Part shown: positions 1,953-8,741 of the stretch, in pieces
How positions within the stretch are numbered: the first letter of the stretch is position 1
Layout of the letters: each line of letters begins with the position of its first letter
Origin: a virus
Taxonomy: Duplodnaviria; Heunggongvirae; Uroviricota; Caudoviricetes
Virus record (IMG/VR): IMGVR_UViG_2579778968_000005
Strand: one strand, 5' to 3'
DNA length: 14,480 nucleotides
The notes under the pieces: generated by a model
Seen by the model: the letters and a program-made list of their open reading frames with translations, nothing else
Told to the model about the DNA's origin: nothing
Databases searched by the model: none
Program-made: the position numbers and the translations under genes

Positions 1953-2744
1953 ATGAGCGAGAAATTAAAGATAGTCTATCGCCCATTACAAGAATTGTCA
2001 CCGTATGCGCACAACGCCAGGACGCACAGTACTGAGCAGGTGGCACAACTGGTAGAAAGTATTAAGCAATTCGGCTGGACTAATCCGGTGCTGATTGACG
2101 AAAAGGGCGAAATTATTGCGGGTCACGGTCGTGTTATGGCGGCTGAAATGCTCAAAATGGATTCTGTTCCGGTCATTGTTCTGTCTGGCCTGACGGATGA
2201 GCAGAAAAAGGCGTACCGCCTGGCAGATAATCGCCTGCCGATGAATGCTGGCTGGGATGAAGATCTGTTGCGGATGGAGCTGTCGGACCTAATCAATGCT
2301 GATTTTGATGTCTCCCTGACAGGCTTCATCCCGACAGAAATTGATGAACTGTTGACGGATGTTTTGCCCGGTACAGGAAATGAGGAGGAGCCGTATACGA
2401 CGAAAATTGATACGCCTGTTTATGAGCCGTCGGGCGGTAAACCGGATATCAGTGAACTGTACGACGATACGAAAACTCAGGAGCTGATCAGCCGGATACG
2501 TTCGGCGTCCCTTGAGCCTGATATTGAGAAATTCCTCCTGTGTGCGGCAGAACGTCACACGGTGTTTAATTTCAGCAGAATTGCGGACTATTACGCTCAC
2601 GCCCCCGCTGAAATTCAGTGTTTTTTCGAGGAGTCGGCGCTGGTGATCATTGATTATCAGCAGGCTATTGAAAATGGATTTGTCCGGATGACGCAGCGCA
2701 TGGTGGAGATCATGCATGGTGGTGAGGAGGAGGAATATGCGTGA
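1953..2744 (+). CDS. ParB/Srx-like (ParB N-terminal nuclease-like domain) protein with an acidic C-terminal region of unknown function
   Basis: The N-terminal ~95 aa (KIVYRPLQELSPYAHNARTH...IIAGHGRVMAA...YRLADNRL) look like the ParB N-terminal/sulfiredoxin fold. Position matches ynaK of the Rac prophage. The stop TGA 2742-2744 overlaps the next start. Confidence 0.7.
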   Translation: MSEKLKIVYRPLQELSPYAHNARTHSTEQVAQLVESIKQFGWTNPVLIDEKGEIIAGHGRVMAAEMLKMDSVPVIVLSGLTDEQKKAYRLADNRLPMNAGWDEDLLRMELSDLINADFDVSLTGFIPTEIDELLTDVLPGTGNEEEPYTTKIDTPVYEPSGGKPDISELYDDTKTQELISRIRSASLEPDIEKFLLCAAERHTVFNFSRIADYYAHAPAEIQCFFEESALVIIDYQQAIENGFVRMTQRMVEIMHGGEEEEYA

Positions 2745-3669
2745 TGATTTTTGCGCCTTTATTCTGACTCACGGGCGACCGGACAAAGTTCTGACTTACC
2801 GGACGTTGCGTCGTGCTGGCTATACCGGGAAAATTTTTATCGTTGTTGATGATGAAGATAAGACACGGCATCAGTACATGGCTGAATTTGGTGAACAGGT
2901 GCTGGTGTTTTCCAAAGCCGATATCGCCAGTCGTTTTGACGAAGCCGATAATTTCTGTGACCGCCGCTCAATTTTTTACGCCCGTAATGCCTGTTTCGAC
3001 CAGGCAAAACTGGTCGGGTGTAAATACTTCATTCAGCTCGATGATGATTATCACGAGTTCCAGTTTCGGGTGGATCGCAACTATGACCAGGCCTATTTTC
3101 CGATAAGGAAACTGGATGCGATCCTTTCTGAAATGCTGGCGTACTACGAATCAATACCTGCTCTTTCCATCGCTATGTCGCAGGGCGGGGATTTTCTTGG
3201 TGACAATGGCGGCCATGCTTCGTGGGTGAAACGCAAGGCAATGAACAGCTTTATCTGTTCGGTTGATCGACCGTTCTCATTCATGGGGCGCATTAACGAG
3301 GATGTGAATACGTACACGAATCTCGGTCGCTGTGGTGAATTGTTTATGACGATCGGTGCTGTCCAGTTAGGGCAGAAACAGACGCAGAAAAACAGCGGCG
3401 GAATGACCGAGCTGTATCTGGATTCCGGAACCTACGTTAAAAGTTTTTACTCCGTCATGTATGCGCCGTCGTGCGTAAAAATCTCACTGATGGGTGCCAG
3501 CCATAAACGCATTCACCATCAGGTCACTTGGAACAACGCTGCAGTAAAAATCCTTCACGAAAAATACAGGAAGAAGACACCCTGCATATCAATGGGGGTG
3601 ACAAATGATTCCGTATTCGAAAGTCGAGTCTCTGGCAGCGTGCCGGATGACTGCACAACAAATCGCTGA
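2737..3669 (+). CDS. Hypothetical protein with GT-A-like (nucleotide-diphospho-sugar transferase-like) features, translationally coupled to the ParB-like gene
   Basis: ATG 2737 follows a GAGGAGGAGG Shine-Dalgarno run at 2724-2733 (the ORF track starts at ATG 2716, upstream of that run). The N-terminus (FILTHGRPDKVL...IFIVVDDED) and a later QLDDDYHEF resemble the GT-A beta-alpha-beta start and DxD motif. The 8-nt overlap ATGCGTGA with the upstream stop indicates coupling. Function is inferred from motifs only. Confidence 0.55.
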   Translation: MRDDFCAFILTHGRPDKVLTYRTLRRAGYTGKIFIVVDDEDKTRHQYMAEFGEQVLVFSKADIASRFDEADNFCDRRSIFYARNACFDQAKLVGCKYFIQLDDDYHEFQFRVDRNYDQAYFPIRKLDAILSEMLAYYESIPALSIAMSQGGDFLGDNGGHASWVKRKAMNSFICSVDRPFSFMGRINEDVNTYTNLGRCGELFMTIGAVQLGQKQTQKNSGGMTELYLDSGTYVKSFYSVMYAPSCVKISLMGASHKRIHHQVTWNNAAVKILHEKYRKKTPCISMGVTNDSVFESRVSGSVPDDCTTNR

Positions 3670-3856
3670 CGTTCTGGATGTTGATCTGAACCGACTGAAA
3701 GAAAATCGGGAAGCAATGACAGATTTTTATGCGGCCATCCGTAAGGGCAGAGCGAAAGGTGAAGCCGAGTTACGAGCGGCATTGTTTAAGCTTGCCAGAA
3801 AAGGGGATGCCTTTGCTCTGCGCGAACTACTCAGGGTGGATAAAAATCAGGACTAA
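3605..3856 (+). CDS. Small helix-turn-helix protein upstream of the small terminase (possible packaging or regulatory DNA-binding protein)
   Basis: 83-aa ORF with a GGGGG Shine-Dalgarno at 3594-3598. It carries an HTH-like segment (MTAQQIADVLDVDLNRL) and overlaps the 3' end of the upstream gene; an alternative start is ATG 3647. Confidence 0.5.
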   Translation: MIPYSKVESLAACRMTAQQIADVLDVDLNRLKENREAMTDFYAAIRKGRAKGEAELRAALFKLARKGDAFALRELLRVDKNQD

Positions 3857-3859
3857 CTG

Positions 3860-4954
3860 ATGAGCAGACCGGACTGGGGGGCGTTGCAGCAGGAGTATAT
3901 TGCTGAATACACCCGCTCCGGTATATCTCCGGTGGCATGGTGTGAAGCAAGGGGACTGAATTACGCAACAGCCCGTCGTTACATCAAAAAAACTCCGAAA
4001 AATGCGCAGACAGAAATGTGCAAAACTGCGCAAAAAAGTGCGCAGAAAAAATCTGCGCAGACTGCACAAAAGCGGAACGAAAAATCTCAGGAAAAAAAGC
4101 CAGTATTCGATGCGGGCCTGAATGAGGGCGACGCGGAGGAATTTTCGTTCTGTCCCGATGAATTCGGCATTTCTGACCAGCAGGCTAAGTTTGCGATGCT
4201 TGTTGCTCAGGGTAAAAAGCCGACAGAGGCGTACCGACTAGCCGGTTATGAGGGGCAAGGTGCGACAGCTAACAGCAACGCCAGTCGTATGCTTAGAAAT
4301 GCCAGGGTTTTTCGCGCTATCAGCTACTTCCGCAATCAGTACCAGAAACGCTATACCGCAGACCTGGATTTACTAGTGAGTCAGTTGATGGCTATTGTCC
4401 TGGCCGACCCCAATCAGCTTGCACAATTTCGCCGTGTTAACTGCCGTTATTGCTGGGGCGAGAATCATCTCTACCAGTGGCGCGATATAGCAGAATTCGA
4501 CAAGGCAGCGGCGCAGGCTTCCAGAGATGGCAAACCCGAACCGGAATATGGAGGCCTCGGCTTTGTTGATAACGCCATACCCAATCCGGACTGCCCGAAG
4601 TGCTGCGGTGAGGGAACGGGACAGCTTTATATGGCTGATACCACTCTGCTTGATGGGGATGCGCGGCAATTATATGCAGGGGCAAAATTCGGAAAATTCG
4701 GCGTTGAGATCCTGCTGGAGGATAAGGCTGCCGCCCGGCGTGAATTGTTGCGTTTGTTTTCTGCTGGCGGGGCTTTATGTGCAGATAAGCGGCTACAGGA
4801 ACTGGAAATTGAACGGCGCAGAATGGAAAACCAGAAGCTGCGCAAAGAGATCGAAACGGTGGAAGATAATGAACATCCCCAGCCTGTGGCGATCAATATT
4901 AATGTGGTTGATGCCAGAGTAAGGAGTGATGAAGATGATCTCTCCGACGCTTAA
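3860..4954 (+). CDS. Terminase small subunit (Terminase_2-like), unusually long, with a low-complexity insert and a Cys4 zinc-ribbon-like motif
   Basis: N-terminal HTH (ISPVAWCEARGLNYATARRYI) and the segment KFAMLVAQGKKPTEAYRLAGYEGQGATANSNASRMLRNARVFRAI look like the small-terminase signature. It sits directly upstream of the large terminase. Contains CRYCWGENH...CPKCCGEG. Confidence 0.7.
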   Translation: MSRPDWGALQQEYIAEYTRSGISPVAWCEARGLNYATARRYIKKTPKNAQTEMCKTAQKSAQKKSAQTAQKRNEKSQEKKPVFDAGLNEGDAEEFSFCPDEFGISDQQAKFAMLVAQGKKPTEAYRLAGYEGQGATANSNASRMLRNARVFRAISYFRNQYQKRYTADLDLLVSQLMAIVLADPNQLAQFRRVNCRYCWGENHLYQWRDIAEFDKAAAQASRDGKPEPEYGGLGFVDNAIPNPDCPKCCGEGTGQLYMADTTLLDGDARQLYAGAKFGKFGVEILLEDKAAARRELLRLFSAGGALCADKRLQELEIERRRMENQKLRKEIETVEDNEHPQPVAININVVDARVRSDEDDLSDA

Positions 4955-6236
4955 TGTGCCTCAGGCGCGATTTCTTTCAATGCCCCATAAATTTAAAGCC
5001 TATATTGCTGGTTTTGGCTCGGGCAAAACATGGGTTGGGTGTGGCGGCATATGCAAGGGGATTTGGGAGCATCCAGGTATAAATCAGGGATATTTTGCGC
5101 CAACGTATCCCCAAATTCGCGATATTTTTTACCCTACAGTGGAAGAAGTTGCTGCTGACTGGGGATTGAACGTAAAAATTAATGAGGGAAATAAAGAGGT
5201 TCACTTTTATTACGGACGCCAGTATCGGGGAACCACTATCTGCAGATCGATGGAGAAGCCACAAACGATCGTCGGTTTCAAAATTGGTAATGCGTTGGTG
5301 GATGAACTGGACATTTTGCCGAAGGAAAAAGCCAGAACGGCGTGGCGCAAGATAATTGCACGTATGCGTTATAAGATTGATGGACTTCGCAACGGTATTG
5401 ACGTTACAACCACGCCGGAAGGATTCAAATTTGTCTACGAGCAGTTTGTTAAAGCCGTGCGTGAAAAAACAGAGCTGGCCTCACTGTATGGTCTGGTGCA
5501 GGCATCTACTTTCGATAATGAAAAGAACCTGCCAGCAGATTACATTCCTTCGCTTCTTGAATCATACCCTCCAGAGCTGATTAAAGCCTATCTTCGAGGA
5601 CAGTTTACTAACCTGACAAGTGGTACTGTTTACCATCAGTTTGACCGGAAACTGAATAATTGCGAAGAAGTGGAGCAGCCAGGGGAGCCGATTTATATTG
5701 GGATGGATTTTAACGTTGGAAAGATGGCGGGAATCGTCCATGTGCTGCGTTTGGGGCTTCCATGTGCGGTAACTGAAATCATCAATGCCTACGATACGCC
5801 GGATATGATCCGCATCATTAAAGAACGCTTCTGGCTGTATGATGGGAATGATTACCGGAAAGTGAGGGAAATTTATATTTATCCAGATGCTTCCGGGGAT
5901 TCCAGAAAATCAAGTAACGCAAGTACGACGGATATAGCCCAGCTTAAGCAGGCTGGTTTTAACGTTGTGGTGAACAGCTCGAACCCGCCAGTAAAAGATC
6001 GCGTTAACTCAATGAATGCAATGTTCTGCAATGCCAATGGTGAGCGTCGCTATAAAGTTAATGTGAAGCGTTGCCCGTTATATGCCGAATCTCTGGAGCA
6101 ACAGGTCTGGGATGAGAAGGGGGAGCCTGATAAAAAATCTGGCAATGATCACCCGAATGATGCCGGAGGTTATTTCATCGTTAAGCAATTCCCTATTGTC
6201 AAACCGACCGGAAGAGTCACATCACTTCGGATTTAA
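4935..6236 (+). CDS. Terminase large subunit
   Basis: Walker A-like AGFGSGKTWVG near the N-terminus, with size and position (after the small terminase, before the portal) as expected. AAGGAG at 4921-4926 sits 8 nt before ATG 4935; alternative starts are GTG 4926 and ATG 4929. Stop is TAA 6234-6236. Confidence 0.8.
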   Translation: MISPTLNVPQARFLSMPHKFKAYIAGFGSGKTWVGCGGICKGIWEHPGINQGYFAPTYPQIRDIFYPTVEEVAADWGLNVKINEGNKEVHFYYGRQYRGTTICRSMEKPQTIVGFKIGNALVDELDILPKEKARTAWRKIIARMRYKIDGLRNGIDVTTTPEGFKFVYEQFVKAVREKTELASLYGLVQASTFDNEKNLPADYIPSLLESYPPELIKAYLRGQFTNLTSGTVYHQFDRKLNNCEEVEQPGEPIYIGMDFNVGKMAGIVHVLRLGLPCAVTEIINAYDTPDMIRIIKERFWLYDGNDYRKVREIYIYPDASGDSRKSSNASTTDIAQLKQAGFNVVVNSSNPPVKDRVNSMNAMFCNANGERRYKVNVKRCPLYAESLEQQVWDEKGEPDKKSGNDHPNDAGGYFIVKQFPIVKPTGRVTSLRI

Positions 6237-6238
6237 TT

Positions 6239-7645
6239 ATGGCTGATATATCAACACCCAACCTCGACTATAACGATATGCTGGAGGCGTGGGATATTAA
6301 CGACGCACTGATGGGCGGTACGCTTGAAATGCGCAGGCAGGGGGAAAATTATCTCCCAAAATGGCCTAACGAAGATGAAGACGCTTATAAAAAACGCCTG
6401 TCTGTGGCTACGCTACTTCCTGTGTATGAAGAAAGCATCAAGCAAAATATTGGGCGCATATTTGCAGAGCCGACAGTATTGAGTGAGGAAACGCCGGCAA
6501 AAATCAGGGAATATGCAGAAAATATCGACATGGAGGGGAGCCGACTGGATGTGTGGGCGCAGCAATTTTTCAGCCTCGCATTTCAGTATGGTGTGGCACA
6601 TGCGCTGGTGGACTATCCACGAACGGATATGAAAGAGATTCGGACAAAAGCCGATGAAAACGCGACCGGTGGTCGTCCGTACGTTACGATGCTGAATCCA
6701 CGCCAGGTTATTGGATGGAAATCGAAAGTTGAAAAAGGGAAAGTTGTTCTCACTGATTTGCGTATAAAAGAGGTCATCATTATTGATGGTGATGATTTCG
6801 GGCAGAAGAAGGTGGAGCAGATCCGCCATATTATGCCCCGTCGAGTTGAAATTTATCGACGTAGCGAAGGCACTAATGGCGAATCTGTCTGGACGCTTCA
6901 TGAGTCATGGAATACCAGCCGTGATGATATTCCTCTGGTAACACTGTACACGAAGAAAACAGGATTTATGCGTGGTACACCGCCATTGCTTAATCTTGGC
7001 TTGCTGAATATCAAGCACTGGCAAAGCCAGAGCGAGCAGGACAATATTCTTCATGTTGCCCGCGTTCCATTGCTGGTGGCCTACGGGCTGGACAGGAATG
7101 AAGAACTGACGGTTGGTGCATCCACCGCTACGATTTTTGAGGACAGAACAAAAAATGGCCTCGAATATGTTGAACATAGTGGCGCAGCGATAGAATCTGG
7201 CGAAACATCACTTGAGAAGCTGGAAAATCAGATGCGTCATGCCGGCGCTAAACTTCTGCGTGCTGAAAATACATCCACCAAATCTGTTGATCAGACTAAT
7301 GAAGAGCGAATGCAGGAAAACTCGCCGCTTTATACAATGGCGAACTCCCTCGAAGATGCCCTCGATAATATTCTCCAGATAATGGCGGAATGGATCGGAG
7401 AGAGTTGCGGTGGCAATGTGGATGTGCGCACTGAACTGGATGTATCTGCCCAGGTGTTTGACTCATCCTCCGCGCTGGCTGTTCAGTCATTGCGTCAGGG
7501 CGGTGATATACGTCAGATTGATGCGGTTCGGGTGTTGCAGGCGTTGAAATTTATCGATCAGGATTCCCGTCCAGAGGAAGTGATCGATGAATTAAAAAAT
7601 CAGAGTGTAATGCTGATGGAAATCAATGATGCAAACCGTGAATGA
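6239..7645 (+). CDS. Portal protein (putative)
   Basis: 468-aa ORF starting 2 nt after the terminase stop and followed by a Mu F-like gene, the canonical order in SPP1-like head modules. Assignment rests on synteny and size. Confidence 0.6.
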   Translation: MADISTPNLDYNDMLEAWDINDALMGGTLEMRRQGENYLPKWPNEDEDAYKKRLSVATLLPVYEESIKQNIGRIFAEPTVLSEETPAKIREYAENIDMEGSRLDVWAQQFFSLAFQYGVAHALVDYPRTDMKEIRTKADENATGGRPYVTMLNPRQVIGWKSKVEKGKVVLTDLRIKEVIIIDGDDFGQKKVEQIRHIMPRRVEIYRRSEGTNGESVWTLHESWNTSRDDIPLVTLYTKKTGFMRGTPPLLNLGLLNIKHWQSQSEQDNILHVARVPLLVAYGLDRNEELTVGASTATIFEDRTKNGLEYVEHSGAAIESGETSLEKLENQMRHAGAKLLRAENTSTKSVDQTNEERMQENSPLYTMANSLEDALDNILQIMAEWIGESCGGNVDVRTELDVSAQVFDSSSALAVQSLRQGGDIRQIDAVRVLQALKFIDQDSRPEEVIDELKNQSVMLMEINDANRE

Positions 7646-8741
7646 ACGGCTGCGTGATGAATCAATTGCTCATGCAGTCTGGATATCCCGCTATAGCACT
7701 GGCGTGGCTGCCAGAATGGTGAAAATACTGAATGACAGCGATGCGGAACTTACTGCTCGCCTGCTGATAGCACTGGACAGCCTCGATCCAGGTAGTTTTA
7801 CCGTTAAGCGCCTGGAGTCACTTCTGGCGAGCGTCAGAGAGGTTAACCGCACTGCTATTAACAGCATGTTTACCAGTCTCTCCGGAGAGCTGAACGAGCT
7901 GGCAATTTATGAGGCTGGTTATCAGTTAAGTCTGTTTGATTCTATGCTACCTGATTTTGTTGCTGATGTTCACCCTCTGGTTGGTATCTCTCCTGATGCA
8001 CTTTATGCCGCTGCAATGGCGCGACCATTCCAGGGACGACTGCTCAGTGAGTGGGCCTCAGATCTTGAGGCGGATCGGCTCAGACGCATAACAAATACAG
8101 TGCGTCAGGGTTTTTTGCTGGGGGATACCAATGAGCAGATCGCAAGAAAAATTCGGGGACATGTCAGTAAGGGATTTCAGGATGGTGCATTGCAGATGAG
8201 CCGGGCTAATGCGGCCAGCATTGCAAAAACAGCGGTTGGACATCTTGCTGCTACTGCCCGTGAGAGTTTTGCCAGCGCGAATAATGATTTGATTAAGGGT
8301 AAGCAATGGTTATCAACGCTTGATAATCGTACTACGCCACAATGTCGAATCAGGGATCGCCTCAAATATACGCTGAATAATAAACCTGTAGGTCACAGCG
8401 TGCCTTATTTGCAGGGGCCGGGAAAAATTCATTTCTGCTGCCGCTCAACGGAAACGTTCATTCTGAAATCAGCGAAGGAACTGGGTATTGATGTTCGCGA
8501 TATTTCCCCGGCTGAGCGGGCCAGCATGGATGGCGTGGTGGCCGGAGATACAACCTACAGGGAATGGTTTTTGCGTCAGCCTTACACCAGACAAAAACAG
8601 ATTGTGGGGGAAAGCCGAGCAAAGCTGATTCGGGATGGTGGTATGTCGCCAGATGAATTTTACACCGATAAAGGCGAATGGCTGACGCTGAAGCAGCTCC
8701 GTGAGCGTGATGCACAGGTATTCAGAAAAGCAGGGATTTAA
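7626..8741 (+). CDS. Phage Mu F-like / SPP1 gp7-like minor head (head morphogenesis) protein
   Basis: C-terminal signature WLSTLDNRTTPQCRIRDRL...GHSVPYLQGPGKIHFCCRST is typical of the Mu F family. It overlaps the portal 3' end by 20 nt, consistent with coupling. Confidence 0.85.
   Translation: MMQTVNERLRDESIAHAVWISRYSTGVAARMVKILNDSDAELTARLLIALDSLDPGSFTVKRLESLLASVREVNRTAINSMFTSLSGELNELAIYEAGYQLSLFDSMLPDFVADVHPLVGISPDALYAAAMARPFQGRLLSEWASDLEADRLRRITNTVRQGFLLGDTNEQIARKIRGHVSKGFQDGALQMSRANAASIAKTAVGHLAATARESFASANNDLIKGKQWLSTLDNRTTPQCRIRDRLKYTLNNKPVGHSVPYLQGPGKIHFCCRSTETFILKSAKELGIDVRDISPAERASMDGVVAGDTTYREWFLRQPYTRQKQIVGESRAKLIRDGGMSPDEFYTDKGEWLTLKQLRERDAQVFRKAGI

Follow-up and report, generated by a model that had tools for sequence, protein, structure and literature searches.

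Pac sites decide which DNA is packaged by a headful phage. The starting points of generalized and lateral transduction thereby depend on them, as does the choice of plasmids and satellites that can be mobilised. To our knowledge, only a handful of pac sites have been defined in enterobacterial phages (P22, Sf6 and P1). In lambda and P22, the small terminase reads DNA elements located in or near its own gene and positions the large terminase (TerL). These elements are the cosB R-elements, bound by the winged helix-turn-helix (HTH) of gpNu1, in lambda, and the pac site in gene 3 of P22. Lambda, a cos rather than a headful phage, combines IHF with three R elements of 16 bp each; the P22 site is single and asymmetric, with a length of about 22 bp. 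In SPP1/SF6, pac (pacL–pacC–pacR) is found within or beside the 5′ portion of the small terminase gene (terS) and, in the accepted model, is bound in a multivalent manner by the HTHs of the small terminase (TerS) ring; recognition of the SPP1 type is reportedly largely independent of sequence.

A different arrangement is found in phage P1, where pac comprises 161 bp with seven TGATCA/G hexamers, is dependent on Dam and is bound by the pacase, and where the hexamers are needed for efficient packaging, their synonymous recoding having cut the yield of phage about 9-fold (PMC10028697). The annotation of the P1 genome places both an IHF site and the sites of pac cleavage within pacA. Four TGATCA hexamers (HEX4) start at nt 194, 201, 213 and 228 of this gene (spanning nt 194–233) and three TGATCG/TGATCA hexamers (HEX3) at nt 324, 336 and 347 (nt 324–352), so that HEX4 and HEX3 flank the cuts.

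The window analysed here (the whole stretch of 14,480 bp) is part of a Rac-family prophage, which has near-identical counterparts among induced E. coli phages and a relative in phage Rac-SA53. Its terminase and head genes are arranged as follows.

3860..4954, plus strand: terS, small terminase, 364 aa (Pfam Terminase_2, PHROG 51, RefSeq annotation)
3860..3991, plus strand: N-terminal three-helix HTH domain of TerS, aa 1–44 (hhalign against P1 PacA, AlphaFold2 model)
3992..4159, plus strand: low-complexity linker, aa 45–100, between the HTH and the Terminase_2 body, holding the hexamer array (translation, alignment, pLDDT)
4003..4068, no strand: proposed pac recognition element, six palindromic hexamers (sequence, relatives, shuffles, conservation)
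4442..4603, plus strand: invariant CxxC ... CxxC pair, aa 195–198 and 245–248, in the TerS body (invariant alignment columns)
4926..6236, plus strand: terL, large terminase (Pfam Terminase_6N, E 3.7e-33; Terminase_6C, E 3.4e-10)
6239..7645, plus strand: portal protein gene (Pfam DUF4055, E 5.6e-45)
7626–8741: MuF-like head protein gene, after the portal gene (Pfam Phage_Mu_F, E 1.3e-8)

Upstream of terS lie a TrkH-family gene, a gene for a ParB_N protein and one for a TAGT glycosyltransferase, the last of these resembling DNA glycosyltransferases. The terS product matches Pfam Terminase_2 (PF03592) over aa 122–321 (E 3.7e-8; 34.5 bits against a gathering cut-off of 26.1) and the 'terminase small subunit' family PHROG 51 (E 1.7e-75). 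Matches to positions 3860–4300 occur in 915 of the 5426 complete E. coli genomes, and 'terminase small subunit' is the RefSeq name of the protein in 915 E. coli genomes. ETEC H10407 and strain ECCHD184 are both 100% identical to the window over these positions. From the N-terminus onward, the protein has a PacA-like HTH, a linker rich in K, Q and A, and a Terminase_2 body. The body holds a CxxC...CxxC insertion, which is probably a zinc ribbon. Judged by its body, the predicted TerS belongs to the SPP1/SF6 Terminase_2 family, with a putative extra specificity module in front. TerL is 40–50% identical to the TerL proteins of Jersey-, HK578- and Kaguna-like siphoviruses, which we take to be headful packagers, and the related TerL of PhiR12_3 was annotated by its depositors as 'T4-like headful'.

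The linker region of terS contains a dense array of palindromic hexamers. A pattern scan located TGCGCA at 4003, 4027, 4039 and 4054, and variants differing by one base at 4017 (TGTGCA) and 4063 (TGCACA), in agreement with the preliminary description of this DNA, whose reading of the encoded peptide, KTAQKSAQKKSAQTAQK, was likewise reproduced. The array occupies 66 bp (nt 144–209 of terS). Its start-to-start spacings are 14, 10, 12, 15 and 9 bp, with a mean of 12 bp. The same description had taken the spacing as roughly one helical turn; the intervals of 9–15 bp are not that clean, and we rejected a helical phasing of the hexamers because the spacing is irregular, as it is in P1.

It is the clustering of the hexamers, and not their overall number, that makes the array notable. 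TGCGCA occurs eight times in the 14,480-bp window against 5.85 expected, a count that is unremarkable and not significant. Four of the eight copies, however, sit inside 57 bp, and the next TGCGCA downstream of the array is at 4839; the array forms one uninterrupted cluster. The window was shuffled 400 times with its dinucleotides preserved, and not one shuffle had a 70-bp stretch with four non-overlapping copies of the same palindromic hexamer; when non-palindromic hexamers were included, four copies of any hexamer in 70 bp were found in 15 of the same 400 shuffles. Shuffling the local A-rich 301 nt gave at least four TGCGCA in 2 of 5000 cases and at least six TGYRCA in none of 5000.

Every array that we found is preceded by a domain of about 44 residues with the consensus MAKPDWGxLQQxFLxEHAKTGISPKDWCEAxGLNYxTARRYIKK. 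A profile built from 18 sequences of this domain aligned end to end with aa 2–41 of P1 PacA (hhalign probability 93%, E 3.4e-7). The homology to PacA is convincing through this profile comparison only, as pairwise BLASTP between the two was marginal (E 0.045). PacA itself matches Pfam HTH_23 weakly at aa 10–44. An AlphaFold2 model based on 32 sequences shows a three-helix bundle (helices at aa 6–20, 24–31 and 35–41; pLDDT ~85–88), and beyond aa 41 the pLDDT falls below 65. The putative recognition helix is Y35-ATARRY-41. A Foldseek search of the PDB returned HTH DNA-binding domains as best matches (DeoR/SorC and LuxR-type regulators, sigma region 4, Aca1 and IstA); all had E values of about 1 or more and no match of this small domain was significant, so the result is consistent with an HTH and is no proof of it. 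Searching Pfam with the N-terminal domain produced no meaningful match. The MBT-repeat proteins that alone were hit in a sequence search of the PDB were rejected as spurious, and NCBIfam gave an IS66 TnpA HTH match that fell below threshold. The domain is essentially confined to the N-termini of small terminases (PHROGs 51, 370, 2606 and 1711). Protein database searches with full-length TerS recovered close relatives only and added no diversity; a search with the domain profile recovered truncated fragments of 44–81 aa only, which were used for the structure alignment and are uninformative on domain architecture.

The known anatomy of P1 pac allows the same anatomy to be recognised here: a PacA-type HTH, about 20 codons of linker and irregularly spaced palindromic hexamers, all in one gene. 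In both phages, the N-terminal three-helix HTH is of the same family and is soon followed, within its own gene, by at least four palindromic hexamers (HEX4 from nt 194 in P1, the array from nt 144 here). The spacing is irregular in both, with 7, 12 and 15 bp in P1 and 14, 10, 12, 15 and 9 bp in the array.

There are also clear differences from P1. The hexamer is TGCGCA instead of TGATCA/G and lacks GATC, and with it Dam control. P1 has groups of four and three hexamers around the IHF and cut sites; here a single cluster of six is present, and a second cluster like that of P1 is absent in this clade. Some relatives (L030, L031, L038, PhiR12_3 and GER2) do have a second hexamer group 60–110 bp downstream. 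No IHF consensus with up to one mismatch was found between 3034 and 6439, that is, from about 1 kb upstream to 2.4 kb downstream of the array. Finally, the TerS body belongs to Terminase_2 and the TerL to Terminase_6N/6C, whereas PacA and PacB match neither (E<=0.01), and BLASTP detected no similarity between the TerS body of the window and that of PacA. The lack of GATC, the single cluster, the missing IHF consensus and the different body and TerL together indicate that, as judged from these sequences, the system as a whole is not a P1-type pacase, even though the array would act in the manner of P1 pac and its HTH is a predicted member of the same family.

The other described systems are more distant. 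With SPP1/SF6 G1P, the TerS shares a body of the same Pfam family (Terminase_2), and differs from it by the additional PacA-like HTH and linker ahead of this domain. The site differs as well: a hexamer array, which has no obvious known counterpart in SPP1, stands in place of the pacL/pacR boxes, and a sharply defined word in place of the largely sequence-independent recognition that SPP1 is said to use. Lambda and P22 share the general logic of a small terminase that reads elements in or near its own gene, and differ in protein fold, protein family and site architecture. P22 and SPP1, which the preliminary description had chosen for comparison, are thus less apt than P1, although the SPP1 parallel holds for the TerS body.

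We consider it likely, by homology and covariation, that the array acts as the recognition element within a pac site of the P1 type. Conservation of the array at the DNA level and the constant presence of a PacA-related domain upstream make a packaging start site its most likely function. The array had earlier been put forward as a candidate pac site, and the homology to PacA, the arrangement of P1 pac and the covariation of HTH and hexamer lend this proposal computational support. A non-Dam TGCGCA hexamer on an SPP1-type TerS is best read as a new form of P1-type pac array. In the searchable literature, we found no virion-end, EMSA or packaging reports for this phage or its close relatives. 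Nor did we find a description of TGCGCA or TGCGAATTCGCA arrays in terS or of the pac sites of Rac-like or Stx phages in that literature, whose coverage leaves out most subscription journals. Contig ends lie near the arrays in two loci (L239 and L270); both loci are stored in pieces, and these ends are hence uninterpretable.

Recognition could proceed as follows. TerS would assemble into a ring through its Terminase_2 body, as expected from its family, and the PacA-like HTHs, carried on flexible K/Q/A-rich linkers of about 55 residues, would each bind one hexamer. Avidity for the cluster could then confer specificity on a 6-bp word that occurs often in the host genome. The bound complex would recruit TerL (4926–6236) for cleavage nearby, and headful packaging would run from there, probably rightward via terL and the portal gene. 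TerS has another HTH within its Terminase_2 domain, and DNA could be bound by that one instead of the N-terminal domain.

We compared HTH and hexamers in 94 distinct intact sequences, in which the class of helix 3 and the class of hexamer were paired as follows, with P1 added.

Helix 3 ARR[YH]: TGCGCA (n = 70, median 5 copies; TGCGAA 0–1)
Helix 3 AKRY: TGCGAA/TTCGCA, often as the 12-bp palindrome TGCGAATTCGCA (n = 20, median 6; TGCGCA 0–1)
Helix 3 ARTR (Stx2a phages): [CT]GATCAT, four copies (L146)
Helix 3 ARRY (P1): TGATCA (distant member, outside the single-residue rule)

The AKRY class includes Klebsiella RothD and phages of Yersinia, Providencia and Pasteurella. Starting from the DNA instead, a scan of IMG/VR yielded at least 121 clusters of three TGCGCA, at least 77 of them within 450 nt of the domain; among the listed clusters adjoining the domain, all 76 that could be classified were ARR[YH]. 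Paired TGCGAATTCGCA was present in 103 IMG/VR contigs and adjoined the domain in 96 of these, with an AKRY helix in 94 and a disrupted, unclassifiable one in two. Whether the search ran from protein to DNA or from DNA to protein, no cross-class combination appeared (among the TGCGCA matches listed). HTH type and hexamer type are strictly co-inherited as one cassette.

This cassette is found in front of different TerS bodies. By BLASTP, these bodies fall into two families, both of which carry both HTH/hexamer classes, and P1 PacA is a third body. The Stx2a TerS bodies are 90–93% identical to those of GER2/PhiR12_3, yet they are combined with ARTR and GATCAT instead of ARRY and TGCGCA, which looks like a recent joint swap of HTH and site. 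The covarying classes correspond to few lineages, and despite the large number of sequences the independent evolutionary events behind the covariation are few. Within the PDWG subfamily, the residue at position 39 may help to read base 5 of the hexamer, with Arg39 for C and Lys39 for A. As P1 combines ARRY with TGATCA, this R/K-to-C/A 'code' is limited to the subfamily and is no general rule.

A broader proposal, in which our confidence is about even, is that HTH and hexamer array form a portable packaging-specificity cassette of about 210 bp. The site would double as coding sequence for the linker, and the cassette would have been exchanged among at least two BLASTP-dissimilar TerS bodies, with PacA as the third. 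It would come in at least four classes (TGCGCA, TGCGAA/TGCGAATTCGCA, GATCAT and TGATCA), with Arg39/Lys39 tracking base 5. The array of hexamers with a PacA HTH would then be a widespread, swappable module that extends beyond P1. The data provide a candidate pac site that can be read from sequence in a prophage family with members in 915 of the 5426 complete E. coli genomes, and the candidates also span many phages of Enterobacterales, Pasteurella and Aeromonas and more than 100 Stx2a phages. If the cassette proposal is true, pac specificity could be read from sequence, and cross-packaging, satellite hijacking and the starts of lateral transduction could become predictable for thousands of enterobacterial prophages, including those of Stx2a phages.

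Covariation and conservation demonstrate a functional coupling of HTH and hexamers and not its purpose. The TerS HTH could therefore bind the array for another reason, namely autoregulation of terS or the late operon, or loading and nucleation of TerS with the cut specified elsewhere. As the array lies within the terS frame, a protein sitting on it could stand in the way of transcription or translation. We regard these alternatives as unlikely. The homologous arrangement in P1 is a proven pac site, and the near-confinement of the domain to the N-termini of small terminases speaks against both. A position 140–210 nt inside the ORF implies no promoter-like context.

The hexamers might also be a by-product of the peptide, that is, of a [TS]AQK linker expanded by slippage, with shared ancestry and codon bias accounting for their conservation. 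The region does encode a K/Q/A-rich repeat, whole hexamer or repeat units have been gained and lost among relatives, and the A-runs are prone to slippage, with frameshifted copies in two loci (L002 and L102). The comparison covered relatives from 48 species-representative genomes and 80 IMG/VR contigs, plus named phages. The array is kept in 70 distinct ARR[YH]-type sequences, with 3–8 copies and at protein identities down to 35–40%, in Escherichia, Klebsiella, Citrobacter, Enterobacter, Raoultella, Leclercia, Yokenella, Kluyvera, Pantoea, Buttiauxella and Aeromonas. Apart from the hexamers, the linker varies among relatives in length and sequence. Both variants of the window, at 4017 and 4063, are TGCGCA in close relatives (89–96% DNA identity), so the consensus array has six perfect copies, and conservation among closely related terS genes, on which the pac proposal had been made to depend, is borne out.

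The peptide does not account for this pattern. In the window, five hexamers read x-Ala-Gln, and the copy at 4017 lies in another frame (Met-Cys-Lys). Among the relatives, the hexamer is read in three frames with unrelated peptides: 285 times as xAQ/xAH, 60 times as [MVL]R[KTNS] and 13 times as CA[EVKND]. In the linker, x-A-Q is spelt T/GCG/CA in 274 of 302 cases (91%) despite at least ten different amino acids preceding Ala-Gln; elsewhere in terS, this spelling is used in 50 of 222. Among 32 relatives at species level, identity is 92% in the hexamer columns, 83% in the spacers and 75% at third codon positions of the adjacent HTH domain, itself highly conserved, so that the hexamers are more conserved than the synonymous sites of the neighbouring domain. 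In Pasteurella phage Pmp11, TGCGAA is read both as Cys-Glu and as Ala-Asn, and the type of hexamer switches with the type of HTH on near-identical bodies. The use of three frames, the T/GCG/CA spelling and the column conservation show that a peptide repeat is insufficient and that selection acts on the DNA word, as the preliminary description had suspected when it asked for the hexamers to be compared with synonymous variation. An origin as a slippage by-product is very improbable and already largely refuted.

The terS of Rac-SA53 may illustrate the same constraint. It is an annotated deletion fusion without the HTH. Of the five hexamers left in it, three carry mutations, one of which is synonymous. 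This would fit relaxed constraint after loss of the HTH, as a single anecdote.

Very improbable, too, is that the array serves the upstream ParB-like protein, a host nucleoid protein or TGCGCA/GCGC restriction-modification or methylation, or that it is mainly a joint for recombination between HTH and body: ParB_N and DNA-glycosyltransferase-like proteins are encoded just upstream and mosaic breakpoints do fall at the array (the Rac-SA53 fusion and loci matching aa 1–80 only), but the array covaries with the TerS HTH, and recombination is a plausible consequence of the repeats that leaves the hexamer-specific conservation unexplained. The ParB-like protein was rejected as the binder, since the array is kept where lysis genes replace ParB/TAGT (L004 and L007). 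The array goes with terS, not with the upstream genes.

The pairing of a PacA-like helix-turn-helix (HTH) domain with an array of short repeats in the small terminase gene (terS) extends to Stx2a-converting phages. In Stx2_EH2086 (L146 1201-1530), which more than 100 other records resemble, the same N-terminal domain carries the helix NTARTRIKM and is followed by four [CT]GATCAT repeats, with two TGCGCA hexamers lying ~100 bp beyond them. These repeats include GATC, as do the P1 pac hexamers. This arrangement suggests a putative Dam-sensitive pac site in Stx2a phages. A second class of cassette was found at L138, L139, L141, L142, L126 and L130-L137, where the helix AKRYIK is followed, at nt ~130-220 of terS, by two to three perfect 12-bp palindromes, TGCGAATTCGCA, together with TGCGAA half-sites. 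Pasteurella phage Pmp11 has nine TGCGAA/TTCGCA hexamers, spread over two reading frames.

TGCGCA arrays also stand behind more divergent N-terminal HTH-like sequences, exemplified by '...DWxxIexDYraG..SlrqIA...', at L150 (~2121), L220 (~657), L237 (~6757) and L265 (~2307). These four were not detected by the domain profile, and the arrangement of HTH and array may reach additional small-terminase families. In six IMG/VR contigs (L285, L310, L317, L357, L367 and L370), no PacA-like domain was found near paired TGCGAATTCGCA; the setting there appears to be operator-like and outside terS, and the palindrome may also be used by an unrelated regulator.

The A-runs that separate the hexamers are prone to frameshift (L002 1501-2596; L102; profile-search proteins P0121-P0240), and one RefSeq terS carries a frameshift annotation within them. 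More than 200 truncated ORFs of 44-81 aa from the profile search terminate in the array, which could reflect sequencing errors, pseudogenes or slippage. The array is the position of a mosaic joint in phage Rac-SA53 and of several further ones elsewhere. In Rac-SA53, terS (L008 1412-2440) is annotated as a gpO-terS fusion that arose by deletion. The breakpoint coincides with the start of the array and the HTH is absent; three of the five leftover hexamers are mutated, to TTCGCA, TGCGCT and TGCCCA, which fits relaxed constraint.

Further features of the window lie in the Terminase_2 body of the small terminase and upstream of its gene:

4442-4603: invariant CxxC...CxxC pair (aa 195-198 and 245-248) within the Terminase_2 body
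340-1815: full-length TrkH-family K+ transporter (Pfam E 5e-145), within the prophage
1953-2744 and 2716-3669: adjacent genes shortly upstream of terS, one for a ParB_N-domain protein and one for a TET-associated glycosyltransferase (TAGT)
3605-3856: small ORF of 83 aa with a match (E 8e-23) to PHROG 309, 'terminase small subunit'

The cysteine pair is probably a zinc ribbon, which is not known as a feature of SPP1/SF6 G1P. The TrkH-family gene lies within the prophage as trkG does in K-12 Rac, and the window appears to preserve intact the morphogenetic region lost from K-12 Rac. The ParB_N and TAGT genes, the latter's product labelled 'GREB1-related' in RefSeq, may form a DNA-modification module; the pair is missing from some array-bearing relatives (L004, L007). 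The 83-aa ORF covers only positions 145-218 of 319 in PHROG 309. It may represent a piece of another TerS type, or else a small accessory protein, and relatives keep it beside terS.
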